Below are positions 7,006 through 47,142 of a stretch of DNA of 57,465 bases, in pieces. The stretch comes from a virus (taxonomy: Duplodnaviria; Caudoviricetes), in IMG/VR virus record IMGVR_UViG_3300013132_000059, positions 1 to 57,465 of that record, one strand, 5' to 3'. A program made the translations under genes and the position numbers. Numbering within the stretch: position 1 is the first letter of the stretch; every line of letters begins with the position of its first letter. Below the pieces are notes generated by a model. The model was not told the DNA's origin. It saw only the letters and a program-made list of their open reading frames with translations, and searched no databases.

Positions 7006-8835
7006 TTATAACACCACACATTCTACTAAATGAATGCCAATATCTATATTAGTTTCTAATGCTATTGCAAATACATCTAAGCTAGTTTGTCCTTTAATAG
7101 CAGTTCCTTCACTGTGTGCTACTAACTTATCACCTTTATTAATAGGGCATACAACTTTGACTGGTACTCGACCTTTCAAAGCAACTGCTGTACCATTTTC
7201 ACATTTATCATTCATTAAAAATGCAGGATCTTCACTTACAACACCAATAGCCCTTTGTCCAATATTAGAGGAAGTTACCTCTTTTTCCCCACCAACTACT
7301 AATACAGTACCTACTTCATAGTCCTTATCAGCAACAAATTTTTCTGCCAAGTCAGCATATGCTGCTCTTGATGATTGACCTGTAAAGAACTGTGTGGTTA
7401 AAGTATTTGTATTAGGATTATATGTAAGTCCTGTAGCATCAATTTTTAAATCTTGATATCCTGAACTACCACTTGTGAATGTTAAATAATGAGTTGCATC
7501 TACTATATTAGCAGTCAATACGCTGATTCTATCAGCATCACCCGCATTAACTAAACTTGTAATAGGTACCCAATCTAATAATCCTGAACTACTAACGCTC
7601 AAGATTTCATTTACATTGCCAATACTTAAAAAAGATGTACTATTTGGACTTGATTGATATGGTATTGCGTTAGACGTCCCACCGTTTAAATTAGTTGTTC
7701 TTGAAGATAACCCTATAAATTGAGTAGCTGTCAATGCTCCGTTGCTATCTCTTGCTGCAACAGTATTAGCATCTGCTGCTACACTACCTTCTCTATAAGT
7801 TCCATTAACATTTAAATATTCTGCATTAAGGGCAGTTCCCCTTAAAGTTCCATAAAAATCTAATGCATATACACTATTAAATTTTAAATCACTTCGACCT
7901 ATATTGCTTATTAAATTTGACCCAGGTAATATATCATTACCTTGTAACTTCATAGGGGTTTTATCTGTGGCTCCTTGATCTGCTGTAACTCTTGTTAAGA
8001 AATTTATAATACCATCAAGTTTTATAGACCTAAAAGAAACATCACCATTATTATTGATAAATGTTTGTAGTGTATCTTGAGATCCCAATGTAAATCCATT
8101 ATTACTAAAACTTACTGTACCAGTAAATTCAGGGCTATTAGATAAAACAAAATCAGAAGCAGTCTTACCACTAAGTTTTAAACTATTACTGCTAGTGCCC
8201 CAAAATCTGTAATCAGAACTTGTAACACCATAATTAATATCAGAACTTGACGTAATCATTGTGTCTACAAGAGTGATACCCTTTTTAATTACTTTAAACC
8301 CATCAATAATTCCGTCTGGTAATATAAATTCTGCACTGCTTGTAACAAAAATAGTTTTATTATTGACTAAGGCTTTAACAATAGCGTGTACAGTACCATT
8401 TGTATCAGTTATGCTAACACTCTTAAGTTCTGTAGTGCCTGCATTTTCAACAGCCTGTGGACCTACTAAAATAAAACTAGCACCACCCCAAGCATAAAGT
8501 TGGTTAGTTTCTGTATTAAACCAAAAGTCACCAGTAGTCAATCCGCTAGGTTCATTACCACCTACCTCTGCACCACCAGTAGTTCTAAACTTTGTTCCGT
8601 CGTAAAATTTTAATTTTTTATTACCGCTATCGTACCAAATTTGACCTGATATTCTACGGGGTGGCTCACTAGTACTGGCAAAATTTTCCAGTAAATGAAC
8701 CATGTTTTCATTTTGTACCTCGCCATAACCGGCATAATTCCTACCGATTAATTTGATATCTAAGGTATTATCAACGGTACCATCTTCAACTGTAGTAAGA
8801 ATTGTACCATTGTACCTATTAATATTGTATGGCAT
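7006..8835 (-). CDS. Tail fibre-like protein, paralog 3, with a C-terminal peptidase G2/chaperone-like domain
   Basis: Shared N-terminal GxNY.GYGE..NEN..HLLENFA...GQIWYD domain. C-terminus YADLAEKF...GVVS...ALKGRVPVKV...KGD.L. Confidence 0.7.
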   Translation of the reverse strand: MPYNINRYNGTILTTVEDGTVDNTLDIKLIGRNYAGYGEVQNENMVHLLENFASTSEPPRRISGQIWYDSGNKKLKFYDGTKFRTTGGAEVGGNEPSGLTTGDFWFNTETNQLYAWGGASFILVGPQAVENAGTTELKSVSITDTNGTVHAIVKALVNNKTIFVTSSAEFILPDGIIDGFKVIKKGITLVDTMITSSSDINYGVTSSDYRFWGTSSNSLKLSGKTASDFVLSNSPEFTGTVSFSNNGFTLGSQDTLQTFINNNGDVSFRSIKLDGIINFLTRVTADQGATDKTPMKLQGNDILPGSNLISNIGRSDLKFNSVYALDFYGTLRGTALNAEYLNVNGTYREGSVAADANTVAARDSNGALTATQFIGLSSRTTNLNGGTSNAIPYQSSPNSTSFLSIGNVNEILSVSSSGLLDWVPITSLVNAGDADRISVLTANIVDATHYLTFTSGSSGYQDLKIDATGLTYNPNTNTLTTQFFTGQSSRAAYADLAEKFVADKDYEVGTVLVVGGEKEVTSSNIGQRAIGVVSEDPAFLMNDKCENGTAVALKGRVPVKVVCPINKGDKLVAHSEGTAIKGQTSLDVFAIALETNIDIGIHLVECVVL

Positions 8836-17547: not shown

Positions 17548-20500
17548 TTATTCCTCATCCATGATTATATCATCTGAATCAGCAGAATATAATCCGCTAT
17601 CAGCACTTAATTCTGTTCCTACTATATTTTCAACATTATATTTTAAGAAATATGCCACTTTATTATTAGATTCTGACAAACTTTTATCAGGATCTCCCCA
17701 ATAAGTTAATTTTTTAATAACAACAGTAATAGGTATATTAGGCAAAGGCATTTCTTTTAATACAACATACCCAATTCTATTACTTGTTGTGCCATGATTT
17801 ATGCCGTCAGTAGTGAATTCTGCCAATTGTACCTCATCACCTTCTGGGCTTTCTGGATGCACATCTTTATTATGTAAGATATATTGATTTTTCTTTAGTC
17901 TGCGAGTACCAATAAAAACTTCTATGTTGTTTTTATTTGCTACAAAAGGTATAGTAATAGTCTTAGTTGAATCATTAAAATCAACATCACTTATACGATA
18001 TATAATATCCTCATCTTCATATGGTACAGTCTCAGAATCACCTATATCATAAACTTTGGTAAACTTTTTATGCACGGTAGGTACACCAGTTCCATAAGTG
18101 CCTCTTCTAAGTTGTCCAATTCTATTGCCTACTCTAAAGTAATATTCAATTCTTTCACCATTAACATATAGTACCCCTGGTGCATTATTAATTTTACTTG
18201 GATCTTCTACAAATAATTCTTTATCATTATAGTGTAAATCTACTTCTAAATTAGTAGTTCTATTTCTAGTAATACGCTTATAATGGAATCTATTCAACAT
18301 ATCTTTAAACTTCATAAAACTTACTGGGTTTCTAACTACATTACCGCTAAAAGTTATAATGCCAAACTTATCTGTAGGGCTCGGTTGACCAGCGATTCTA
18401 ATGCTTTTTTTGTCGTCAAGTAGAATATAATCAATATTTGGTGTTAATAGTTTTTTATTTTTTGTTACCCAAATATAACTACTGTCTAAAACTTCTCTAT
18501 CAAAAGTAAATATTCCAGCACTAATTTGAACTAAACTCAAATAATATACACTATTAAAAAAGTTATTAAGTTTTGGCTCAATAATATAGTACTTTCTTTC
18601 TATGTTTAAAATATCGTGATTAAACATAGCAATAACTTCTATCTCAGAACCAGCAGTGTAAGCCGATTTAAATTGAATATAAGTACCATCTGTATCAGTT
18701 CTTATAAAATAATCAGCATCTTTAATTACTGTTACAATAACTTCTGCTTGATCTTTATAATAATTGGTTTTAATATTCAGTTTTGAATTAATTAAATCCA
18801 ACGTATACCCAATACCTAATTCAACTTGTTCTCCATTAATGTAAATTATGTAATCATTAAGTGAATAGATATCAATATCAGCTTTACCTGCCGGTATATC
18901 GTATACTAAATTATTGTTACTTAAGGTATATTTGAAAGAATCAGTAGAATTTAATATAATATCATTAATTCTAACAATAGTATTAGGATCTAACGGTATT
19001 TTTTTACCAACTGGATTATTGAGATAATACTTTTTACTAGTACCATTACTTACAATAGTTTCTCTACTAACTATACTTTGATTTAATGTATCCCCTAAAA
19101 ATATTGAATAATTTACTACTTGTCCTATTTCTAATTCAAATGGAAATCTAATTCCTATTTTGTTGTCTAAAGTTTGTAAATTTTCAGTTCTAAATAGTTC
19201 ATGATTGGTTATATCACCAGATACTAAGGTATATGCAACAATATTTTCTTGCCAATCAACATCCGTTATTATAGTATTTGTGTTTTCAGAGACTACTTGT
19301 AAATCATTTATTAATAGATTTTCACCATTAAAACCTAAACTCGTAACACTTATTACACTGCTAATAGGTGCTGGATCATTTAATATTACTATTAAGTTGT
19401 CATAGTTAAACTTATAATCTATATTTGGTTTTAGTATATGATTGTTAATTTTGACAATTATAGCATTTTTATTATTGGGATATTGACTAATTTTGAAAGA
19501 CTTATTAACTCCATCACTAACAAAGTTATTGCTAGTTATGTTAGAACTTGTTGTTAATGATCTTTCAAAAACTGTAATTGCTACACTATCAACTACGTGT
19601 CCTGGTAACATTTCTTCTGGGGCAGGACTTGTATTAGGAGTTATAAATCCGTCACCATCTATAATAATGTCATCTGCACGTAAACCACTGGCTGTTCTAT
19701 AGGCACTGCTAGCATTTAAATTTCCACCGTCAATAATAGTATCGTAGATTTCGTCATCTGTAGGTACTGAAGCATCCCATGCTTTCTCTCCCCAACCATA
19801 AACTCCGTCCCAACTATTTGGTTTTTCAAATCCTACACCTATTATATTGACACCACCATAATCAATACCGTTCATTAGTTGTGCAAAATCACGGCCAATC
19901 ATACCTGATTGAGGGTCATAATAATGATATATTCTTTCTAGAGCATTAAGATGTACAAAATCTTTTTGGTATGTAACTTTAATAATGCTATTATCGTCAG
20001 GTGGTTCTACAAATACTATTTCAGCATAGTATTCTGTAAATCCTCTGCTTAAACTAGTCAGGGGGTTAATATTAAAAGATCCAATAACTTGGTCTTGCTC
20101 ATTTATTTTTACAACAACGGTGTTGGAATTTAAATTGGGTTTATATCTTAGCCTAAATATTGTTTGAACATTGTTGCCTTCAAATGTGTCTTCTATAGTT
20201 ATAGGTCTAATATCTTCAAACTTTTCTTTTAAATATCTATCAAATTTCATAGAAATTTTATTTGTTCTAATAAGATTACTACCTATTACAGCATATGCTT
20301 TGGCTATAGTTCCATCTTTAGATATATTACTGTTAATGATCACTTTAGGTGGTATAAAGTATCCTTCTCCTTGATCAAGTATTTCTATTTTTGCTATGGA
20401 TCCTTTTACGATAAATGCTCTCGCTTTTGCAGGTCTAGTACAAGGTCCTTCAAATTCTATTATAGGTCGGTTTAAGTAGCCACTACCAGAATCACTTATT

Positions 20501-23500
20501 TTAATTTCAGTTATATTAAAGCCGATGTTTGAATACCATGATTTCCAAGGTTCTTGATTTACTAAGTCTAAGTCGTTAACAGTTACTAGACTATTTTGAA
20601 AATTAGTAGATAATGCCTGTATTTTTAAATCTTTAAGATATGAAGGCAAGTCAAAATCTGTAATTAGACTTTGACTATTTTCTATATTAGAGTATATACT
20701 GGTAAATTCTCTAATTTTTGATCTATATGGCTTTACTTCTTGAATATATTTTTCAAAATCAGGTAAATTATCGCTATTATAATTAATTTTTTGACGTAAA
20801 GATCCTACATTATGCAGTGCTTTAATAAAACTAGTTTTACTAATCCAATCTACAAATAACTGTTCTGATAACACATATCTTAATGTAACAAAGAATAATT
20901 TAAGATAAATTTGTCTACGATCATCAACTAATAGTTTGTTTTTAAGACTGTTTAAAATTATTCTAAATTCTATAGAACCAAACCCATCATATAAATTAAT
21001 GTCATATAATGATCCATCAAAACCTAAACTAGTTAAAGGGTAATCATAAAATTTTGCACTTAATTGTATGCTCCCATTTTGTCTACCAATAACTTTATAT
21101 GATCTAGTATAGTCAATGTCAATGGTATCTGAATATTTTTGTAGCAATAACCAATCTGAACCAGGATTGTTAACTTTAACCAACTGACCTATATTTACAT
21201 TTAATGTGAAAAGTTCATAAGTAGCATTAATAATATAGTCAACTTTAGTAAATTGGTTATATCCATCACTATACCAATCTACATAATTCCAAAAGTTAGT
21301 TACATCATATTCCTGAGTTTTAATTTTAGTCCAAGTTCTACTATTAGAATTATATGAAAACATTGACCATAAATTAGATTCATTGGTTCTAACTAATGCA
21401 GTCAAAGGTCTAATAGTTAGACTGGTTGAATTAATATCATATCCTTGACCAGGATTTACTATAATAATTTTAATGATTATGCCCTGATCATTAATTTCGC
21501 TTTTTAGAACAGCATCTTTTCCTAATCCAGTTATTTTTATTTCAGGAGCAAATTTATAATTTAATCCACGATTAGTAAATTCAACATCTATAATTTTACC
21601 ACTTTTTATAATTGGTTTTATAAATGCTTGTCTGTGTGATTCTGCACTTATAAATTGTAATTCATCTTCGGTATCAATAATATAGTCGTATAGCCCATAG
21701 ATACTGTTTGGTATTTCGTCTTTTTTAAAGAAATCACTTAAGTCTAGATTATCAATTTGAATATTTTTTATTTCGTAATTAAATCTTTCAATAAATTGTT
21801 TTACTGCTTCTATTCTATTAATGAACATGCTTTGTCTAGGTTTAAACTTAACACCATACTTTTGTTTAGGGCTAAGATTTATATCAGGTACAGTATACCC
21901 ATTTTCATCTGATCCAATCAAACTATCAAACCATTTCCTTTCTAATTCAGTAGGAATTTTAGTTTTTTCATTTTCACTTATAATTTTCCATTCATTATGA
22001 ATAATAAGTTTTTCTTTTTCAGGTACAGTCCAATATTGAACACTTAGAACAACATTTTTATCTTCTACAACATTATATACGTTGGCTAACCCAAACGAAT
22101 TAGGACTTAAAAATTGTATGTATTTGATACCATAGTTAATTGGATTGGCTATTTGACCAGTTATATCAACTGCATTTACTTTTCTACCATTTACTGCTGG
22201 GGTTATTTTTTTATTTTTTACCCAAAAATAGTACACATTGCTGAATGTTTTACTTATAGAATCAAATTTTCTTTTTACACTATAAATTTTATTTCCGTAA
22301 AGACTAGTTCCGCTTATATTTCTAGTGAATCCTTCTTCTGTGCCTGATAGTGTATCCCATTGATCAGGGGTATATCTAGATTCTACCCATTCATAAATAT
22401 CTATGCTAGCAGTTGGGTATAAAGAATTCCAAGTAAAATTCCTAAAGGTTACATCACCCATAGTGCTATCTAGGAACTTGGCCCTTCTTAAATCCCACCA
22501 TAACATACCTACGTGTTTATCTAACCAATTCATACCATCATCTATATTAACTTTTATAGTATTTGAGTTAGTTTGAAAATTATAAATTGCTGGATCGTAG
22601 TATGTTTTGTATTTTATTTCTTGTTCAGCAACTCCTGCAATTTTACCCTGTACTGGATCTATTATATCTACATATGATACAAGTTGACTTGTCTTTTTAT
22701 TATATAAAAATATCTTCTTAAAACCATTAATGTCAATTTTAGGTTGTTGTTCTAAATAAAGGCGCCAACTATATTCGTTATTTTTCTTTGAATACACATA
22801 AACTTTGCCGATAGAATTTGCAGCAGGAGCACCAATTATAATATTATTATTACAAGCATCAAACCCTATACCGTATTCTTCTATTGAGTTTGGGGTAGGT
22901 AACGATTCTGAGAATATATACTTAGTAATATATCTATCATATACATCAATACGTCCAGAATCTCTGTTAATTCTACTAGAATCCTCACCTATTAATAGAT
23001 CCTTACTACTATCTCCGTACTTACTAAAAATTACCAATGTTTTTTCATCGTTGGCAAATTTTAGATAATAACCATATTGTTCACCTAACACTTCATCTGA
23101 TTCTGCATTTCTATTATCAATTGTTTGTAACAATGTATAGTTTACAGGCGGGACGGTTGAATCATCTAATGCATTTTCAGTTTTATAAATTCTTACTCTA
23201 CCTTGATTAGTATAATCAACAGTTTCATATGTGCTAGATATTGCTAGAAGTTCACCACTGTCTGAAATTGCCATTGCAAAGCCAAAACGTTCAGTGCGTC
23301 CTGGCAAGTCTAATATTTGTTGTCTTTGATAAAAATCAACTTTTCTTTCATAAGCGTAAACTTTACCGCCATCATTTAAACATGCACTTAAAACCAGTAT
23401 AGATCCATCTTTATTAACATCAAAATCATATGCAAACGGTTCTTCATCACAGTCACTAGGTTCTAGTCTATCAAATATTTGAAATGGTATTTGGTTAGTG

Positions 23501-26500
23501 CTAAGGTTAATATCGGATAATGTAGCATCGTATATGTAAATTTTACCAGAAATGCTTACTCCATTGGTAGAACTTATAAACAAACTATATTGGTAACTTT
23601 CTCCTACTTGCTTTTTTGTAAATCTTATTTTGTATCCATAAAAATTATCTAAGATTGGTGTATTAGTATAAACTTGTTCAGGATTAACAAGAGATTGTCT
23701 TAAATCATAATCACCTGTTATAGATAATTTGTATATTTTAACACATCCATTAGAATTTAAATTACAACCTATGGCAATTAAGGTATTATCTTCTGATATA
23801 GATAAGGATTTACCAAAATTTGTTGTATTAGAATCTTCTATGACCTGTGATTTTATCCAGTTTAGATTACTTTTTTTATAGACTCTTACTTGATTATTAG
23901 ATGAAATTAGTAATATGTTAGCATCTTTACTGATACAAACATATTGTCCCAGTCTAGATCCAATTGTTAATATAGAATCTGATATTTCTTTTTGAGAATA
24001 TACTGGTAAGTTTTGCCATATTATATGATCGCTATTGTTATTAAACCAAACTATTTCACCATAAGGCCAAAGTTCAGTTACTGGTCTAATATATTTAGGG
24101 ACTTCTAATTGATCAATATTTTCAAATCTATATTTTGCTATTTTAAAGGTTTTAAGTGGTGCAATTCCAGGTACTTCAATTTTAGAAATTAAATTAAATT
24201 GTACAACTTTATCATTAACTTGAACAACTTTTTCTATAACTCCAATGCCTTGATTATTTTTGAAAATTATTATATCGTTTACCATTAGTTTAGGATTAAT
24301 ATTGAAAGTAACTTGCGTTCTTTTGTTAACATTTACTATATTTGTTATTACTAAATCTAAATGATTTACCCTATATATTGACCAATCATCTTTAAACTCA
24401 TTGATCTTATTTTCAAATGCACACCATATATAATCACCATCTTCTAAAATCAAAGGATCTACTAGTAAAATATCATCTTTTTTGTCTAAAGCATATTTTA
24501 CCATGTCTAATCTACAAAATCCTGGTGTTTTTAGAAATGGCCTATAATTTTCATTCACAGGCCATATATTATCAGAATAATTTTTTGGTTTTAAATATAC
24601 ATCGTTCTTAGTTTGTCGTATAACATAGTCAGTAAGAGCATTATTAATAGTTGGTACTAATTCTAATGCTTGCGGTTCTATTTTAAATTGTGATTCATCT
24701 AAGACAAATTCAACTTCTTCAAATGCATCACTTGCTCCATATTCTCCAACTCTAACAGCCCATTCTTCAATAAAGTCAATACTATCAGTATTATTAGCAC
24801 TTAGTACATCAAAAAGTTTGTTTAAACTATTTACAGTACCTTTTTCAGTAATCATTCCTTGATAAAACTTAAATTCGCTAACATCATTTTTAATAATATT
24901 TTCTAAATATTGTCTTTTTTGATAACCAATTAAATGTTGCGCTATTCTTTGTTGGTTAATATCAAAGTTATCACTGTCTAAGTCATAAAAATCAGTGAAT
25001 TGAAGAGCCTTATAATCCCAATTAGGAAGCAGGCTAGATTCAGGCTTATCCTCTATTCTTATCCAGTAATTATTATCAAATTCCTCTGATCCAGGTATCG
25101 TTTCATTTGCAGTATAATAAAATTCTTTATACTTAATGATATCACCAAGACTATAATCTGTCCAAGGAATCCATTCTTTAATTATAGATTGGTCATAGAT
25201 AAATCCTGGGGCATCAAAACTTCCATTCCAATCGATAGTCTTATACCCCGCAATTCTTATTTTTTCTTGTCTATACCCTGTTTCAAGATTATAAATTATG
25301 TCATTAAATTGACTTGTATTATCAATAATCAATACATGCTCTTTTTGAACTAGGTAAATTGCTGCACCATATATTCCAGTTTCAGTTTTAGGATATAGAC
25401 TAAACTTATTATCATATCTAACGTAACTTAGTAATTGAGGATCATATTTGACACCATCAGCACTAAAAATTTCATAAACATTATTAGTTTCTCTAAGATC
25501 ATCTACTACACTATATGAAAGATTTAAGTTAATTTTTAAGGCACTAGGACTTAATGAAATTGCTGCTGCACCACTAGAGTTTAATTCATTTAATTTAATA
25601 TAATAATTAATATCAAAAAATGAGGAAGTTATATGGTCTCTTATAGCACGATAAAATTCGCCTTCGTAGTAAACTATATTATCTTCTTTATAACTTTTAT
25701 CTGATTCCCATTCAGTATATTGATCAACTCCTGAACTCCAATTTTGTGTAGTCCAAAATAAAAATTCTTTTATACTTGTATCCCAATTAGTTATTACTTT
25801 TAAATTTGTGTTAAATTCATCAAATTCAAATCCTTGATCTTTTAAATATTCGCCATAACCTTGTAAAAAGTCTACTACCTCTTGAATACTTAACAATATA
25901 GTACCATAGTTTAACATTACAGATTCTTTAATGAACGATGATCTTAAGTTAGCATCACGTCCACCAACTATAGGCAATTCAGGTATCTTTTGTAATAAAT
26001 CATAACTTGGTAATGTGCTACTAGTATGACTTATTTTGACTCTATAAAATAAATTATTAATTTTTACTATATTACCTGCTACATATCTTTGATTAGAATT
26101 CCACTCGATATAACTCTCACTAATTCCACCAACATTAATATTATACCCAGGTTTGTCCCATGAATAATAGTAAAAATAAGGTTGTGTTTGACTATATCCT
26201 TTTATTTCATAACCCAATCCACTTTTAGTTAAGAGTTTAGTTATTATAACACCACTATAGAATAACTTTTTAATAGGAGAACTTGAATTTAAGAAAATCT
26301 TATAATTTTCTTTCGGAACAAATACCCCAGATGATGAACTTACGCTCTTACTATCTAAAATTAAATTAAATTTTTCTCTACTACTAAATCCTCCCAATCT
26401 ATGACTTAATTTGTTAGTTAAGTTTTTTAAATCATATCTATATTGATTAATTGCATTGGTATTATCACTAATCAAATAATCTGTAACATAATTAACTAAT

Positions 26501-29500
26501 CCAGATGTTTGTACTCTTGAATTATCAGAAAATATACTTGTTGTTAAAATATCCTTAAGTCTTAAACGTAGTCCTGTATCTTTATAAACAAGTTGATCTG
26601 CTTGATTTCTTATAATTTTAGATCTATCATATAATAATGCAAAAACTTTATTTGGCTGCATTAGTAAAATTGTTTTAATTAAACTGAATGCATAGTAACT
26701 ACTTCTACGCCAAGTGTTTTCTACAGGTCCTTGATCCCCAAATATAAACCCTTTATCAGTTTTTATATTAAAGATACTGGAAGTGATATTAGTTTCTATA
26801 GGATTTAATAAATTACCAATTTCGTCTACAGGAATATTTACTAAGTGTGGTCTTATAAATTTAGGATGTTTTTTAATAGGTTTATTTGGCTCTCTTACTA
26901 TAGCATCTTTTAAATCGTTCCATAGAATTAAATTGTTATTGGTATATGGTGCAGGGCCATAAACTTGATCCCACCAACTTGGTTTTATACTAAACCCTAA
27001 ACTTTCCCATGGACAAATATGTATACGATCTGTATCATAATACCATTTGTAAATACCTCTCCAAAAACCTTGTAAACTATCGCCATCATTGTTTACAGCC
27101 TCATTGTAATTGTAGGTAAAAGGATTAGAATTTAAAAAAAGTAACTGTTTAGTATAATCAGTATCAATTAATGTAGTCCATTTAAAAAAGTTAGGTGATA
27201 ATATTTTATTAAATTCTTGGAAACTGTAGGCTGTGTTTCTGTTTATACCAGGTATATAGTCGTAAATATCAAATAATTTAGGATCATATTCAACTTTAAT
27301 ATTGTTAAAAATTCTTTTTTCTAATTCTAAAATTAAATCATCTCTATTGTCATCATATGCTAATATGATACTGCCATCATGTCCTTGTATTACATTTCTT
27401 GGCTCAATTAATGTAGTATCTAAATACTTTTTAGGTTCATATTTTGGATACATTCCTAAACTTGTAGGAGTAGATGGTATAAAACAACCATCTGTTCTTT
27501 CATATTCTACTAAGGTTATTAGATCATTTTCGTTTTTTAAAGCAGTAATTCTAACAAATCCATCACCTGTAAATATGTAATCTCTGTCATGAACTAATTG
27601 TACTTCATTTAAGTACACATATAAACTTTTTGGACTGATTTCTTTTAGAGTAAAATTGCTTGACAAAGGATATTTTTCTGTTTTAGGATCTTTTACTGTA
27701 AAATTAAAAACACTTTTAGCACCATATCCTATCATGTCACTAAAATAATAAGGACTTTGTTTTGTTTTTCCTTTATTAACTATGTCTAAAACTTCGTCAA
27801 TTATTTCTCTAACTAACAGAGTTTCATTTACATTAGTGATATTGTATAAAAAACTTCTTTTAAATTTACCATAATCGTCTCTAGCCTGATCAATGCTTTT
27901 TACAATACTGGCATTTTTATCAGTTAAATGATATAAACTTAAATTTAAACTTCCACTGTGTTGTACGAACTTAGTTCCAAAACTGCTTAAATTAGATATA
28001 TCTCTTAAATTTCCACTACCTGGATATATTCCCTCAAAGTTAGGCAAATGATCAATTATTGAGTCAACATGATCAATAATTTCACCTAAAGTAAAATTTC
28101 TAATTTTATTATTTTCAGGATTATTTTGAAAATTTAACGGAAATTCATAGTGACCATTGTTGTTCTTTCTCTGTTTAGCATAACATTTTATTGATACAAT
28201 ATCAGATTCTAAAATATCATTATCAAGTATAACAATTTTATATTCAATATCGTTTAGAACATTGTAATATTTTTTATCTAATCTTATACCATTAATATAA
28301 ACTTTTACAATTAAGTCATCTAAATTATTAATATCATCATAAACATCAATTAAAAATTCATTCCTAGTATTATCATTGTATATTCTTATAATAGGTTGTG
28401 TATTTTCTATTCTGCACTTAGTCCATCCATTTACTAGTTTTTCTTCTCCTACTGGGGAGAAAACTTTTAGAAATTTATTATCAATATTTTCTACAACAAT
28501 AGATTCATTAACTTTGTATTGATAAGTTTGATCACTTAAATCAAAATTAAATAAAATATCGCCTATATTATTGATATTCTTATAACTAAGTGCAAAGCCA
28601 AGTTCCTTATCCTGTGTTCCTGAATTTTGTGAATAAGAAAATATTTTTGTTCCTTTAAAAGTTGAACCAGTATATTTAAAATTATCATTTAAAGAAATAC
28701 TGTCTTGATCAAATAGATCAAAAAATGGACTTTGATTTACTGAGGATTTAGTTTGGGCAAAGATCCAATCGCTGCCATCAAACCAAAACATCTGACCGGC
28801 ATATTGGTTTCCTAACATGACCAATGCACATTCATTTAACATAGGCTCAGTATCTGGTTCTAATGCTAAATGTATTCTTCTTGAAGTTACTCCTGTATCT
28901 TCATCGTATAAATTCAGAAATTCTACTTTATAAACTCTGTTTTTAACCAGTATATCTTTATCTGCATTAAAGATTACTCTATGACCGCTTACTAGTTCTA
29001 CACCATCTATATAAAAACCTAAAGCACCTTCTACAGTACTAAATGCATCTTTAGTAAAATTATCAACTAAATCTACATTCTTTTTACTAAAAGATCCAAA
29101 ATTAAATAATTTAATATTAGGTTTAAATTCAATTATCGGTCTTGTGCCCCTTTGTGCTTGATCAAATATTGGCTGTTTTCCTAAAATTTCAGCAGTTTTT
29201 ACTATGACATCTTGATGAAACCATCTATTGTACCTACTCCAAGGGTTACGATCTCTACTTGCTCTATTAATTGTTATATAATCTTTTTTAAGAGCAGCAT
29301 ACTTTACTTCGCTGTATGGTAATTGATCAAAATTAGATTCATCAAAGTTCACAGTAAAATTTTCTGTGTAAGTTGCGGCTAGTTCTAAACTTTTTTCTCT
29401 AATTAATTGTATTGACTCACCTACACCTTCAACATAAAATATTTCATCTTCATATTCTTTTGGTGTCACTTGTCCTACAAACTTAATCTTCATGCCGTTT

Positions 29501-30390
29501 GTTAGACTAATACCGTTACTCAAACTAAAATTTTTCTTTCCTATAAATTCTTCTTCAACATTAATTTTAGTATTTTCAATTATATCAAATATTTTTATTA
29601 TACCACTTGTATCAATATTATTTTCACTAACATAATATAAGACATCTGGAGCATCCATAGGAACTTGAAAAGTTATTACACCTTCAGTTACAGCAAAATT
29701 ATCTATTCCTTCTAGATATCTAAATTCGGACCCAGTAACTCTATCAGTCTTAATACTAAATGGCTCCGTCAATGAAGATATATCAAACTTATAAGTTTCA
29801 CCTCTATATAATTTTAGTACTGGATTTCTTGTTAATCCATCTGGGCTAAAGAGATAAGCAAAATTATCGCCTTCATCTACTGTGGTAATTGTATAGGTAC
29901 TAACGGTATTAAGTATTTTTGTTCCACTAACAGGTACAATATCAGGACCAAAAGGTAACCAATAATACTGTAAGTAGTTTACAATTTTATCCCAATCAAT
30001 ATGAGGTTCCCAACTATACATCTCTTGTTGATTAAGTCTTTGATGATTATCAGTAATTCCACCTAATACATTAATGGTATTGATATAATCCAAGTAGTCC
30101 TTAAAAAAGTTTATATTTCCTAGATTATCTTGAGAAACTAAAGATGGTTCTAGTTGATAATCTTGTCTATCTTTTAAGGGTGCTTGCAAAAATACATCTG
30201 ATTTTGTTACAGACTTAGCATTTTGTCTACCAATGTAACCATTAAGACGCCGTACAGTTCCATTTTGAATTAAATTATCTACAGTTGCAGCAAGGAATTT
30301 TTTGTTAGAATCAGATCTGAAAAATCTTGGTAGAAATCTTTCTGATTTTCTTTTTTCATTACCATCAATAGGAACTCCAAACTCTTCCAT
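17548..30390 (-). CDS. Giant (4,280 aa) baseplate wedge/structural protein, gp7-like by position
   Basis: Uninterrupted ORF between gp6 and a gp9-like gene. It has FG-GAP-like propeller repeats, G.GY...P repeats, CBM-like modules, V.ING Ig-like repeats and a KPYRSKIREF motif. Confidence 0.7.
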   Translation of the reverse strand: MEEFGVPIDGNEKRKSERFLPRFFRSDSNKKFLAATVDNLIQNGTVRRLNGYIGRQNAKSVTKSDVFLQAPLKDRQDYQLEPSLVSQDNLGNINFFKDYLDYINTINVLGGITDNHQRLNQQEMYSWEPHIDWDKIVNYLQYYWLPFGPDIVPVSGTKILNTVSTYTITTVDEGDNFAYLFSPDGLTRNPVLKLYRGETYKFDISSLTEPFSIKTDRVTGSEFRYLEGIDNFAVTEGVITFQVPMDAPDVLYYVSENNIDTSGIIKIFDIIENTKINVEEEFIGKKNFSLSNGISLTNGMKIKFVGQVTPKEYEDEIFYVEGVGESIQLIREKSLELAATYTENFTVNFDESNFDQLPYSEVKYAALKKDYITINRASRDRNPWSRYNRWFHQDVIVKTAEILGKQPIFDQAQRGTRPIIEFKPNIKLFNFGSFSKKNVDLVDNFTKDAFSTVEGALGFYIDGVELVSGHRVIFNADKDILVKNRVYKVEFLNLYDEDTGVTSRRIHLALEPDTEPMLNECALVMLGNQYAGQMFWFDGSDWIFAQTKSSVNQSPFFDLFDQDSISLNDNFKYTGSTFKGTKIFSYSQNSGTQDKELGFALSYKNINNIGDILFNFDLSDQTYQYKVNESIVVENIDNKFLKVFSPVGEEKLVNGWTKCRIENTQPIIRIYNDNTRNEFLIDVYDDINNLDDLIVKVYINGIRLDKKYYNVLNDIEYKIVILDNDILESDIVSIKCYAKQRKNNNGHYEFPLNFQNNPENNKIRNFTLGEIIDHVDSIIDHLPNFEGIYPGSGNLRDISNLSSFGTKFVQHSGSLNLSLYHLTDKNASIVKSIDQARDDYGKFKRSFLYNITNVNETLLVREIIDEVLDIVNKGKTKQSPYYFSDMIGYGAKSVFNFTVKDPKTEKYPLSSNFTLKEISPKSLYVYLNEVQLVHDRDYIFTGDGFVRITALKNENDLITLVEYERTDGCFIPSTPTSLGMYPKYEPKKYLDTTLIEPRNVIQGHDGSIILAYDDNRDDLILELEKRIFNNIKVEYDPKLFDIYDYIPGINRNTAYSFQEFNKILSPNFFKWTTLIDTDYTKQLLFLNSNPFTYNYNEAVNNDGDSLQGFWRGIYKWYYDTDRIHICPWESLGFSIKPSWWDQVYGPAPYTNNNLILWNDLKDAIVREPNKPIKKHPKFIRPHLVNIPVDEIGNLLNPIETNITSSIFNIKTDKGFIFGDQGPVENTWRRSSYYAFSLIKTILLMQPNKVFALLYDRSKIIRNQADQLVYKDTGLRLRLKDILTTSIFSDNSRVQTSGLVNYVTDYLISDNTNAINQYRYDLKNLTNKLSHRLGGFSSREKFNLILDSKSVSSSSGVFVPKENYKIFLNSSSPIKKLFYSGVIITKLLTKSGLGYEIKGYSQTQPYFYYYSWDKPGYNINVGGISESYIEWNSNQRYVAGNIVKINNLFYRVKISHTSSTLPSYDLLQKIPELPIVGGRDANLRSSFIKESVMLNYGTILLSIQEVVDFLQGYGEYLKDQGFEFDEFNTNLKVITNWDTSIKEFLFWTTQNWSSGVDQYTEWESDKSYKEDNIVYYEGEFYRAIRDHITSSFFDINYYIKLNELNSSGAAAISLSPSALKINLNLSYSVVDDLRETNNVYEIFSADGVKYDPQLLSYVRYDNKFSLYPKTETGIYGAAIYLVQKEHVLIIDNTSQFNDIIYNLETGYRQEKIRIAGYKTIDWNGSFDAPGFIYDQSIIKEWIPWTDYSLGDIIKYKEFYYTANETIPGSEEFDNNYWIRIEDKPESSLLPNWDYKALQFTDFYDLDSDNFDINQQRIAQHLIGYQKRQYLENIIKNDVSEFKFYQGMITEKGTVNSLNKLFDVLSANNTDSIDFIEEWAVRVGEYGASDAFEEVEFVLDESQFKIEPQALELVPTINNALTDYVIRQTKNDVYLKPKNYSDNIWPVNENYRPFLKTPGFCRLDMVKYALDKKDDILLVDPLILEDGDYIWCAFENKINEFKDDWSIYRVNHLDLVITNIVNVNKRTQVTFNINPKLMVNDIIIFKNNQGIGVIEKVVQVNDKVVQFNLISKIEVPGIAPLKTFKIAKYRFENIDQLEVPKYIRPVTELWPYGEIVWFNNNSDHIIWQNLPVYSQKEISDSILTIGSRLGQYVCISKDANILLISSNNQVRVYKKSNLNWIKSQVIEDSNTTNFGKSLSISEDNTLIAIGCNLNSNGCVKIYKLSITGDYDLRQSLVNPEQVYTNTPILDNFYGYKIRFTKKQVGESYQYSLFISSTNGVSISGKIYIYDATLSDINLSTNQIPFQIFDRLEPSDCDEEPFAYDFDVNKDGSILVLSACLNDGGKVYAYERKVDFYQRQQILDLPGRTERFGFAMAISDSGELLAISSTYETVDYTNQGRVRIYKTENALDDSTVPPVNYTLLQTIDNRNAESDEVLGEQYGYYLKFANDEKTLVIFSKYGDSSKDLLIGEDSSRINRDSGRIDVYDRYITKYIFSESLPTPNSIEEYGIGFDACNNNIIIGAPAANSIGKVYVYSKKNNEYSWRLYLEQQPKIDINGFKKIFLYNKKTSQLVSYVDIIDPVQGKIAGVAEQEIKYKTYYDPAIYNFQTNSNTIKVNIDDGMNWLDKHVGMLWWDLRRAKFLDSTMGDVTFRNFTWNSLYPTASIDIYEWVESRYTPDQWDTLSGTEEGFTRNISGTSLYGNKIYSVKRKFDSISKTFSNVYYFWVKNKKITPAVNGRKVNAVDITGQIANPINYGIKYIQFLSPNSFGLANVYNVVEDKNVVLSVQYWTVPEKEKLIIHNEWKIISENEKTKIPTELERKWFDSLIGSDENGYTVPDINLSPKQKYGVKFKPRQSMFINRIEAVKQFIERFNYEIKNIQIDNLDLSDFFKKDEIPNSIYGLYDYIIDTEDELQFISAESHRQAFIKPIIKSGKIIDVEFTNRGLNYKFAPEIKITGLGKDAVLKSEINDQGIIIKIIIVNPGQGYDINSTSLTIRPLTALVRTNESNLWSMFSYNSNSRTWTKIKTQEYDVTNFWNYVDWYSDGYNQFTKVDYIINATYELFTLNVNIGQLVKVNNPGSDWLLLQKYSDTIDIDYTRSYKVIGRQNGSIQLSAKFYDYPLTSLGFDGSLYDINLYDGFGSIEFRIILNSLKNKLLVDDRRQIYLKLFFVTLRYVLSEQLFVDWISKTSFIKALHNVGSLRQKINYNSDNLPDFEKYIQEVKPYRSKIREFTSIYSNIENSQSLITDFDLPSYLKDLKIQALSTNFQNSLVTVNDLDLVNQEPWKSWYSNIGFNITEIKISDSGSGYLNRPIIEFEGPCTRPAKARAFIVKGSIAKIEILDQGEGYFIPPKVIINSNISKDGTIAKAYAVIGSNLIRTNKISMKFDRYLKEKFEDIRPITIEDTFEGNNVQTIFRLRYKPNLNSNTVVVKINEQDQVIGSFNINPLTSLSRGFTEYYAEIVFVEPPDDNSIIKVTYQKDFVHLNALERIYHYYDPQSGMIGRDFAQLMNGIDYGGVNIIGVGFEKPNSWDGVYGWGEKAWDASVPTDDEIYDTIIDGGNLNASSAYRTASGLRADDIIIDGDGFITPNTSPAPEEMLPGHVVDSVAITVFERSLTTSSNITSNNFVSDGVNKSFKISQYPNNKNAIIVKINNHILKPNIDYKFNYDNLIVILNDPAPISSVISVTSLGFNGENLLINDLQVVSENTNTIITDVDWQENIVAYTLVSGDITNHELFRTENLQTLDNKIGIRFPFELEIGQVVNYSIFLGDTLNQSIVSRETIVSNGTSKKYYLNNPVGKKIPLDPNTIVRINDIILNSTDSFKYTLSNNNLVYDIPAGKADIDIYSLNDYIIYINGEQVELGIGYTLDLINSKLNIKTNYYKDQAEVIVTVIKDADYFIRTDTDGTYIQFKSAYTAGSEIEVIAMFNHDILNIERKYYIIEPKLNNFFNSVYYLSLVQISAGIFTFDREVLDSSYIWVTKNKKLLTPNIDYILLDDKKSIRIAGQPSPTDKFGIITFSGNVVRNPVSFMKFKDMLNRFHYKRITRNRTTNLEVDLHYNDKELFVEDPSKINNAPGVLYVNGERIEYYFRVGNRIGQLRRGTYGTGVPTVHKKFTKVYDIGDSETVPYEDEDIIYRISDVDFNDSTKTITIPFVANKNNIEVFIGTRRLKKNQYILHNKDVHPESPEGDEVQLAEFTTDGINHGTTSNRIGYVVLKEMPLPNIPITVVIKKLTYWGDPDKSLSESNNKVAYFLKYNVENIVGTELSADSGLYSADSDDIIMDEE

Positions 30391-45337: not shown

Positions 45338-45775
45338 ATGTCATGGACACATCAAGGCCAACTAGTCACAGAAATCCTAGAGGAATATATAGGCTTCGTT
45401 TATCTTATAACCAATACAATATCAGGCAAAATGTATATTGGCAAAAAGTTATCAAAGTTTGCCAAAACTACTTACAAGGTCGTAAAATTAAAAAATGGCA
45501 CTAAGAAACGTAAAAAAATTAAAGGCAAAATAGAAAGTGATTGGCAAGATTATTATGGCTCAAACGACGCATTAAAGGCAGATGTAATAAAATTAGGTCC
45601 AGAAAAATTCCAACGAGAAATATTATACTATTGTAAAAGTAAGGCAGAATGTAGTTACATAGAGGCAAGAGAACAATTCTCAAGGCGTGTATTGGAAAGC
45701 GATGACTACTATAACGGACAGATCAGTGTTCGTGTTCATGGTAGTCATATCAAAGGCAAAATTTTAAACGGTTAA
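45338..45775 (+). CDS. Small free-standing GIY-YIG (Seg-like) endonuclease
   Basis: GFVYLITN...GKMYIGKK, YYGS, conserved E (YIEARE) and YYN. Carries a basic insert KLKNGTKKRKKIK. Confidence 0.85.
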   Translation: MSWTHQGQLVTEILEEYIGFVYLITNTISGKMYIGKKLSKFAKTTYKVVKLKNGTKKRKKIKGKIESDWQDYYGSNDALKADVIKLGPEKFQREILYYCKSKAECSYIEAREQFSRRVLESDDYYNGQISVRVHGSHIKGKILNG

Positions 45776-46195
45776 GGCTTGGCACCGGCTAAACTTCAGG
45801 TGCCTCTATACCTGGACAAATGTATCGCAGGGATGATTTCGCTGCCGTAGCGAGGACTCAGCCACTACCCGCAAGGATGACGATCACTTAACTGCCGTGA
45901 TTTGGCTGTTTGAATAGGATAAAGGCCAAAAGACGCTGATTTTCAGCACGTTTTACAAATATGTTAGCGTATATTTGTAAAGCCGCCGTTGTATGAAGAC
46001 TGTGCTCGAGGTACCGGACAACCGCCTCTGTAATGCACTAACGCTAATGACCGAGCAACTCGCATAATGTTCTTCGCCCTGTGTGGGCGAAGTGTGACGT
46101 CACAATCTGCATAATATTAAAAAAAACAAAAGACGAAGAAAAAACTTTTTAGGACGACTAAGTCCTAAAAAAGAGTGAGCGTAGCATCACTCTCC
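45776..46195 (+). ncRNA. Candidate large structured non-coding RNA (family not recognised)
   Basis: ORF-free and GC-rich (65/120 GC by hand count in 45781-45900). About ten helices, nested multi-stem domains, a GCAA tetraloop, and loop 45963-45970 complementary to 46041-46048. Confidence 0.65.
46146..46192. terminator. Two tandem hairpins, possible terminator or RNA 3' end
   Basis: tttttaggac/gtcctaaaaa (46146-46171) and gagtga/tcactc (46173-46192) follow an A-rich tract. Confidence 0.45.
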
Positions 46196-46199
46196 TTAA

Positions 46200-46205
46200 T
46201 AAATA
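46200..46205 (+). promoter_or_regulatory. Late promoter core TAAATA
   Basis: 4 nt before ATG 46210. Confidence 0.65.
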
Positions 46206-46209
46206 CAAG

Positions 46210-47142
46210 ATGAAAATCTTAGAAATAATTGGTGCTTTATCAAGAGTTGGTGGATATTTAATGAATCCTGTAACTACTAAAGGAATATCTCAAACGGCTA
46301 AACTGTCTAAAGACACATTGCCTTTTAAAAATGCTGCTAAAGCAACTAAAGCTGGAGAAAAGGCTGCAAAAAACATGCGTAAGGTTATACCTTTCGCTAG
46401 TAAAGGTGGGTGGATTGAGAAAACTCTGACTAAGTCTTTTGTAAACAGAAATCTTAAAGCTCTCAATGCTGCTAAAGCAGAAATTGCTCGTAATGGAACA
46501 CAGGTATTTGGTGATACCATATTCAAATTATTTTGGGCAGCGAACATTTGGGACGCAGTCACTGATTATTATGCAGCAAAGCAAATATTATTAGAAAATC
46601 CACCTCCTGATGCTGATGCTCAGTTGAAAAAATTACAAGGTCAATTTATGGCACAAGTTTTATTACCTGGAATAGCCATGGGTGGTGCAAAATTATTAGG
46701 AATGATTCCTAATGCATTGGCCAGCGTAGCAAAGTCATCACCGGGAACTACATTACCTAAATTGGGTATGACTATAAATGTAGCCACTGATTTCATAGTT
46801 AGAGCAGGAGCAGCCGGTGCACTGGCAGTATTCATGACTGATGAAGGTAAACAAAAAATTTCAGAATGGTTAGGTGGAGTTATAGATGGTCTAGGATTTG
46901 TTAGTTCTCCATTGTTTACTCTACTTGAATATGCAGTACCGGCATTAGAAATGGCCACAGGTATGAAGGCTCCACAGGTGGTTAAGAATTTTGTAGCGCA
47001 ACCAAAAGCACCTGCTGCTGGTGCTCAAGGTGGTTCAGATCAAAGTGGAGTTGCAGGATCTGTACTAGGCGCACTGGCAGGTGGCGGCACCTTGGATGAT
47101 ATTGCAGCCACCAAATTTGCAGATATGGTCACTAAAAAATAA
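46210..47142 (+). CDS. Hypothetical late protein, possible internal head/ejection protein
   Basis: TAAATA 4 nt upstream, MKILEII N-terminus, basic first third, Ala/Gly-rich hydrophobic helices. Confidence 0.6.
   Translation: MKILEIIGALSRVGGYLMNPVTTKGISQTAKLSKDTLPFKNAAKATKAGEKAAKNMRKVIPFASKGGWIEKTLTKSFVNRNLKALNAAKAEIARNGTQVFGDTIFKLFWAANIWDAVTDYYAAKQILLENPPPDADAQLKKLQGQFMAQVLLPGIAMGGAKLLGMIPNALASVAKSSPGTTLPKLGMTINVATDFIVRAGAAGALAVFMTDEGKQKISEWLGGVIDGLGFVSSPLFTLLEYAVPALEMATGMKAPQVVKNFVAQPKAPAAGAQGGSDQSGVAGSVLGALAGGGTLDDIAATKFADMVTKK

Follow-up and report, generated by a model that had tools for sequence, protein, structure and literature searches.

A covarying pseudoknot within a structured RNA of T4-like freshwater jumbo phages that extends the Polynucleobacter-1 motif

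H-type pseudoknots, in which the loop of a hairpin pairs further downstream, the helices can stack coaxially and a domain is locked, are found in tmRNA, RNase P, glmS and the group I intron core. In phage T4, genes for free-standing homing endonucleases adjoin stable RNA genes, as segB does in the tRNA cluster. Few RNAs of unknown function are both large and conserved, and new biochemistry has repeatedly come from such RNAs. Among those linked to phages and prophages are GOLLD and ROOL, which are characterized as large, ornate and of unknown function in the abstract of 10.1101/2024.12.08.627333. The motif Polynucleobacter-1 (Rfam RF01718) is named in the main article of Weinberg et al. 2010 (PMC2864571) only in a table, where it is given as a probable cis-regulator of Burkholderiales with a freshwater association.

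The RNA described here lies in a window of 57,465 nt (the whole stretch of DNA analysed, IMG/VR record IMGVR_UViG_3300013132_000059), which is a fragment of a T4-like phage with an estimated completeness of 16%. T4-like genes (baseplate wedge and hub, tail fibres, portal) fill the window, and a gp55-like late sigma factor and SbcD/SbcC-like nuclease genes are also present. A 4,280-aa ORF (17548-30390, minus strand) is situated among the baseplate and tail-fibre genes. Positions 45776-46209 are free of ORFs, and their G+C content is above that of the flanks.

The plus strand of the window matches RF01718 at 45777-45911 (135 nt, the 5′ domain of the RNA) over the full model, positions 1-141, scoring 88.9 bits where the gathering score is 37. 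The family was also above threshold in 20 of 20 other loci tested (64-121 bits), and its freshwater association fits the present phages. In contrast to the catalogued motif, which stops at this point, about 200 more conserved nucleotides begin here, and the RNA is a phage gene, often convergent with its neighbour, rather than the listed cis-regulator of Burkholderiales. No Rfam family was above threshold in this 3′ domain (~200 nt). Taken together, the RF01718 match and the conservation of the 3′ domain across homologues indicate that the 141-nt ‘orphan’ motif is the front third of a larger, doubly pseudoknotted plus-strand RNA of approximately 340 nt (45777-46115), a core gene of uncultured freshwater jumbo phages. 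The 3′ ~200 nt, comprising helices P7 to P11, both pseudoknots and a heptamer repeat, had not been catalogued before. Two 3′ hairpins probably extend the RNA to about 46193.

Rfam searches over the RNA at E values of up to 10 returned only RF01718 and chance-level matches; at the pseudoknot, the sole other match was a weak one to cow-rumen-2 (RF02947; 22 bits, E 0.13, against a gathering score of 66). The latter alignment spans exactly 45951-46047 with the same order of elements, namely a UUAGC-loop hairpin, GCCGCC, nested hairpins and an end at the loop-pairing strand. None of the 20 other loci tested matched cow-rumen-2 at E values of up to 1, and the resemblance may be a lead for distant kinship with an RNA of rumen metagenomes rather than a sign of membership. 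GOLLD and ROOL, as that abstract presents them, are likewise large, highly conserved, structured and found by comparative genomics. Unlike them, the phage RNA described here is smaller, has no Rfam match to either and is found in lytic T4-like jumbo phages.

Homologues were collected from IMG/VR by pattern scans, with one pattern for each half of the RNA (at least 118 and at least 120 stretches, respectively), and with nhmmer using 334 nt of the window (at least 41 matches, at least 37 of them extending to the 3′ end of the query). With a profile derived from the first alignment, nhmmer gave 172 matches among the 235 loci listed. Both halves of the RNA are covered in 150 of the 172 matches listed, and 10 further ones end within 5 nt of the end of the locus; most of the remaining 12 listed start close to an end, contain an insert or have diverged too far. 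In one weak partial match (L005), reading by eye recovers the 3′ domain together with its pseudoknot and repeat. The resulting set of at least 151 full-length copies (150 loci and that of the window itself) comprises at least 142 distinct sequences in approximately 114 clusters at 90% identity, a set that defines the fold sufficiently for probing, activity assays and cryo-EM.

Each of four relatives of 262-355 kb carries one copy of the RNA. Among species-representative genomes the pattern matched seven places, of which three were chance matches. The four true copies are each on a short MAG contig, with the same phage genes next to them. A blastn search of 45700-46250 against 50,697 GenBank phage records gave no match, and thus no cultured phage with the RNA. 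A search of the main texts of articles turned up no account of this phage RNA or of a longer form of the Polynucleobacter-1 RNA. The order SbcD, SbcC, nuclease, RNA and baseplate hub is common to all of the loci listed except one (L179). The RNA is a single-copy, syntenic gene of a freshwater T4-like jumbo phage lineage.

The initial annotation had pointed to a perfect stem, tttacaaatat/atatttgtaaa, the whole 8-nt loop of which would pair with a downstream 8-mer. The stem sequence is as claimed. Repeat searches identified an inverted repeat of 11 nt (45952-45962/45971-45981; 100% complementary, 8-nt loop) and another of 7 nt (45964-45970/46041-46047; also 100% complementary). The first forms the perfect 11 bp of hairpin P8 (45951-45982, plus strand), which can be extended by a U-G and a G-C pair, and the loop of which (45963-45970) is GTTAGCGT. 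The second joins the loop bases TTAGCGT (45964-45970) to ACGCTAA (46041-46047), a strand that begins one base after the 3′ strand of helix P9; this pairing is designated PK1. An extra G-U pair between G45963 and T46048 would also be possible. The word ACGCTAAY occurs three times on the two strands of the window, against 1.44 expected from shuffles, and one of these occurrences is the P8 loop itself on the opposite strand. Given this rarity, a same-strand copy within about 100 nt downstream would be expected approximately once per thousand trials. A match in a single sequence cannot, of course, prove pairing by itself, and covariation is the decisive test.

For that analysis, 105 sequences were picked from the at least 142 distinct full-length homologues and aligned with MAFFT from the sequences only (alignment A2). 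The members of A2 are mutually less than 90% identical over the aligned stretch; four sequences with inserts of more than 175 nt were left out, as were redundant ones (at least 90% identical to a chosen sequence). In P8, 11 of 11 pairs have changed on both sides, and 87.6% of cells are paired (105 homologues). All seven Watson-Crick pairs of PK1 likewise show changes on both sides, with 92.1% of cells paired. Double-change cells in PK1 numbered 103, against 29.8 in shuffles, and its covariation score of 0.447 (0.198 in shuffles) was reached by none of 500 shuffles. When the 3′ strand was slid by one to three columns, pairing was between 24 and 53%. Two of the five shuffle measures were modestly above the shuffles; these are coarser counts, one of the pairs that show double changes (7, compared with 5.6 in shuffles and reached by 53 of 500) and one of extra pair types (17, compared with 13.9 and reached by 12 of 500). 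In an independent, blind scan that combined mutual information with a helix search, PK1 took fifth place among all helices of the RNA, and the second pseudoknot, PK2, took seventh.

The joint changes in loop and partner are also apparent by eye. The window has GTTAGCGT with ACGCTAA, and homologues have GATAGCAT with ATGCTAT, GATAGTGT with ACACTAT and GCTAGTAT with ATACTAG; in a divergent clade the pair is TTCAACT with AGTTGAA. PK1 is a genuine, conserved H-type RNA pseudoknot between the loop of P8 and a strand 3′ of P9. Of the eight pairs proposed in the initial annotation, seven keep pairing across homologues and the eighth does not. The G45963-U46048 pair is peculiar to the clade of the window, being formable in 31 of 105 homologues, and G stands opposite G in 70 of 105; 84 of the 105 can form the seventh pair, T45964-A46047. 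The conserved pseudoknot is thus one of 6-7 bp, not 8.

These data also bear on the idea that the locus is a DNA-level palindrome, such as a cruciform or an operator, with a chance match to a distant 8-mer. The stem is indeed AT-rich and perfect. However, its sequence varies freely while pairing is kept, the frequent G-U pairs would be C-A mismatches on the other strand, and a distant 7-mer covaries with the loop. This explanation, vanishingly improbable in our estimation, is refuted by the covariation.

Compensatory changes in P1 (45782-45786/45799-45803), P3 (45838-45842/45850-45854), P4 (45859-45864/45903-45908) and P6 (45882-45887/45897-45902) show that the helices of the RF01718 motif are kept in the 5′ domain, which also contains P2 (45811-45819/45823-45830) and P5 (45868-45870/45875-45877). 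A conserved linker (GUUUGAA...AAAAGAC) and a variable hairpin, P7, follow at 45912-45950 (alignment A1), and P7 itself (45934-45938/45944-45948) covaries. Alternative loop modules, CCC-GNAA-GGAU and UCC-UUGACA-GGAC, were seen at P5 (45868-45877) in alignment A1; through them, profile columns 92 and 103 covary in a non-Watson-Crick manner (TC 92, CT 50).

The initial annotation had placed the 3′ strand of PK1 just after another structured domain, and this proved correct. P9 (46001-46005/46035-46039) encloses P10 (46008-46012/46024-46028) within 46001-46039; five of five P9 pairs show double changes, and P10 is 100% paired, with an invariant U-G (105 of 105). The loop of P10 carries the 3′ strand of PK2, ACAAC (46018-46022), which pairs with GTTGT at 45988-45992. 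This second pseudoknot (GUUGU/ACAAC), which had not been noted in the initial annotation, has double changes in three of five pairs (UA/CG 62/43, GC/AU 65/35), and 99.4% of its cells are paired. Further downstream, a conserved and covarying hairpin, P11 (CTTCGCCC / GGGCGAAG), is formed by 46072-46079/46085-46092 (46072-46092). Over the 33 pairs of the 3′ domain, 92.2% of cells are paired against 70.5% in shuffles, and the covariation score is 0.599 against 0.206. A long-range helix between 45907-45913 and 46060-46066 would be possible, but its changes are only between G-U and A-U. Many unpaired bases of the RNA are invariant in alignments A1 and A2.

The topology of the 3′ domain resembles that of the classical H-type pseudoknots in that a loop pairs downstream through short or absent linkers: within the loop, a single unpaired base (G45963) lies 5′ of the PK1 strand and none lies 3′ of it, and the gap between P9 and PK1 is one base. 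With such linkers, P9, PK1 and P8 can stack as one long pseudo-continuous helix. Judged from the topology, this stack would close the 3′ domain into a compact double-pseudoknot core, in which PK2 would tie the strand after P8 to the P10 loop. The RNA differs from those classical RNAs in having no sequence or family match to them and a helix crossing order of its own.

G-U pairs occur at the base of P9 in 54 of 105 homologues and at four P8 positions in 19-34 of 105. Many conserved G-U pairs would be C-A mismatches on the minus strand, and the RNA is therefore assigned to the plus strand. The plus strand had been chosen earlier on the basis of the G45963-U46048 pair; that choice is borne out by the other G-U pairs, and the pair from which it was made is not conserved. 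Together with the covariation of PK1, these pairs uphold the earlier view of a tertiary pairing at the RNA level within a structured plus-strand non-coding RNA.

A pseudoknotted RNA of this size beside a homing-endonuclease-like gene might suggest a known catalytic or housekeeping RNA, namely a group I or group II intron, tmRNA or RNase P. Between 45600 and 46300, however, no Rfam family except RF01718 reaches an E value of 0.1; in particular, there is no match to Intron_gpI at E values of up to 10 and none to the Rfam tmRNA models, and ARAGORN finds no tRNA or tmRNA genes in the window. The ORFs flanking the RNA are complete, each with its own stop and start, which argues against an intron. 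Group I introns are built around a P3/P7 knot, and the helix crossing order here is unlike it. Membership in any of these classes is accordingly regarded as extremely improbable. No known ribozyme family matched the RNA in Rfam at E values of up to 10.

The 3′ domain ends in a repeat. Unit A (46058-46068, plus strand) consists of an invariant ACTC and the heptamer GCATAAT (46062-46068), and unit B (46104-46115, plus strand) of AATCT, of which ATCT is invariant, and again GCATAAT (46109-46115); P11 lies between the two heptamer copies, and unit B is the last stretch conserved in all homologues. Across homologues the copies are 47 to 65 nt apart. The hexamers of both copies are identical in 124 of the 125 distinct homologues listed, despite the existence of seven variants, and the four variable positions of the heptamer match in 98-100% of sequences. 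Relatives approximately 92% identical differ at both copies at once, and the divergent clade has other heptamer words, again alike in both copies. This identity-type covariation represents a constraint beyond ordinary base-pairing models.

A pairing partner for the heptamer was sought. Within 800 nt, no conserved site carries its Watson-Crick complement, and the only wobble partner is an invariant AUUGUUU that overlaps P4. Complements are not in excess over a swapped-heptamer control upstream of, inside or downstream of the RNA, and the window contains 17 copies against 15 expected. The heptamer stretch is non-coding. A mini-ORF or ribosome-hop role (a sense codon followed by UGA or UAA) was considered and rejected: the spacer before the heptamer is 15, 16 or 17 nt across homologues, and the divergent clade uses GGTCAAG.

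The repeat raises the idea, quite unlikely in our judgement, that the RNA is a large phage ribozyme or a conformational switch of a class not seen before. PK1 and PK2 would then build a core that reads the heptamers, and the heptamers might compete for one docking site or be the two substrates of a single reaction that, for instance, excises or exchanges the P11 segment. Even a parallel, homo-paired helix between the two is conceivable.

Downstream of unit B, two further hairpins (46145-46173 and 46172-46193; together 46145-46193, plus strand), for which covariation was judged by eye only, probably form the 3′ end of the transcript. In relatives, a hairpin with a conserved GAGCG-N-GCGAA cap and a covarying stem is found beside a strong hairpin, and the motif is present in 61 of 88 sequences. 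No canonical terminator was found on the plus strand. A hammerhead-like reading of the GAGCG..GCGAA hairpin was rejected, as its core misfits the hammerhead ribozyme consensus.

It was of interest whether the RNA could be a riboswitch or other 5′ leader that controls the downstream gene, as the ‘y’ for cis-regulatory beside the motif in Table 1 of PMC2864571 would suggest. In the window, the next ORF (46210-47142) is indeed on the plus strand, 95 nt after unit B. However, in at least 71 of the 138 loci listed the next gene is on the opposite strand, which is not the 5′ UTR position proposed for RF01718, and the downstream genes belong to many families.

The word TATAAATA is that of T4 late promoters. 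In the window, TAATAAATA (46197-46205, plus strand), one mismatch away from it, lies between the RNA and the next ORF. Such a word (at most one mismatch, at most 60 nt from the start codon) is found in 45 of the 59 loci listed in which the next gene is on the plus strand, against 11.3 in shuffles. Since the next gene is often on the opposite strand or is separated from the RNA by a late-promoter-like word, the RNA is not regarded as a leader, and control of the downstream gene is highly improbable.

On the upstream side, a 145-aa plus-strand ORF (45338-45775) ends 1 nt before the RNA. It consists solely of a SegE-type GIY-YIG nuclease domain (PF19835, E 2.1e-32), and it also matches PHROG 447 and homing-endonuclease PHROGs. 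Among the 149 loci listed with enough flank, a GIY-YIG ORF of this kind (PF19835, 141-148 aa) is directly upstream on the plus strand in 131, with a median gap of 16 nt; a PD-(D/E)XK nuclease (PF24608) takes that place in nine, and another ORF in the remaining nine. The PD-(D/E)XK examples are L095:4127-4642, L006:3963-4484 and seven other loci. Two unrelated nuclease folds thus occur at one site.

In RNA libraries of four studies, contigs from relatives (85-99% identical) cover 45351-46045, with no cover beyond 46080. Neither joints nor ends were seen in the contigs over 45351-46045. Contigs of two studies bridge the stop of the ORF and the start of the RNA; they are a weak hint of co-transcription with the upstream ORF, as carry-over of DNA is possible.

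These observations are pertinent to the notion that the RNA serves the nuclease operon in cis, as a 3′ UTR element with no function in trans that would guard the mRNA from 3′ exonucleases, set its 3′ end or regulate the upstream gene. Such a role would be in keeping with the position of the RNA directly after the GIY-YIG ORF in 131 of the 149 loci listed, with the bridging contigs and with the hairpins that come after the RNA. On the other hand, approximately 340 nt with two pseudoknots and invariant unpaired bases is far beyond the needs of a stabiliser, and the RNA follows three kinds of genes (GIY-YIG, PD-(D/E)XK and unrelated ORFs), with a different neighbourhood again in L179. A purely cis-acting element is considered unlikely, although it is the most serious of the alternatives.

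The joint explanation that best accommodates the data, and which we hold to be very probably correct, is that PK1 belongs to a doubly pseudoknotted phage RNA, which would lie at the 3′ end of an operon and act as a folded RNA in trans. The RNA would be transcribed with the upstream genes (late sigma factor, SbcD, SbcC and GIY-YIG nuclease) and would form the 3′ end of that operon. It would then act as a protein scaffold or decoy, or as a ribozyme, rather than as the leader of the next gene. As read from the sequence comparisons, the favoured interpretation is thus a compact RNA that would work in trans, whether as an RNP scaffold or as a ribozyme. Genes for TROVE/Ro60 proteins and reverse transcriptases were looked for in four relatives of 262-355 kb, and none were found.

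The nuclease gene itself suggests another possible partner, in that the adjacent small nuclease, which has no DNA-binding domain, might use the RNA as its guide or scaffold and would then be RNA-dependent. A nuclease (PF19835 or PF24608) is directly upstream in 140 of the 149 loci listed, and insertions flank the nuclease/RNA pair more often than they split it. Adjacency within one syntenic phage lineage is, however, not independent evidence of joint function, and in nine of the 149 loci listed an ORF intervenes or no nuclease is nearby. The latter is the case in L179 (homologue at 8419-8760, 77 bits), where an amidoligase-like ORF of 649 aa is upstream and a kinase-like ORF downstream; the RNA there keeps the pseudoknot and the identical heptamers with no nuclease beside it. 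Conversely, homologues of the GIY-YIG protein are present, once each, in 457 GenBank phage records, and in the three examined (Melnitz, P-HM1 and phiM12) there is neither the RNA nor room for it. These three phages and L179 break the obligate co-occurrence of nuclease and RNA that characterizes RNA-guided (OMEGA-like) systems. Nor was a variable single-stranded guide segment or a free variable end found in the homologues, the only lineage-variable single-stranded words being the two identical heptamers. A dependence of the nuclease on this RNA is therefore judged very unlikely.

The arrangement is reminiscent of segB in T4: a GIY-YIG gene of the Seg type directly adjoins a conserved RNA gene, and in some genomes a nuclease of another fold takes its place. 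It differs in that the GIY-YIG gene is nearly fixed (131 of the 149 loci listed) and has no DNA-binding domain. Homologues that consist of the GIY-YIG domain only carry the label ‘NAD synthetase’ in PHROG 447 as well as in many phage records. Given the Pfam assignment to SegE GIY-YIG, that label appears to be a propagated annotation error.

The ORFs in the homologous loci discussed above are simple longest-ORF calls.
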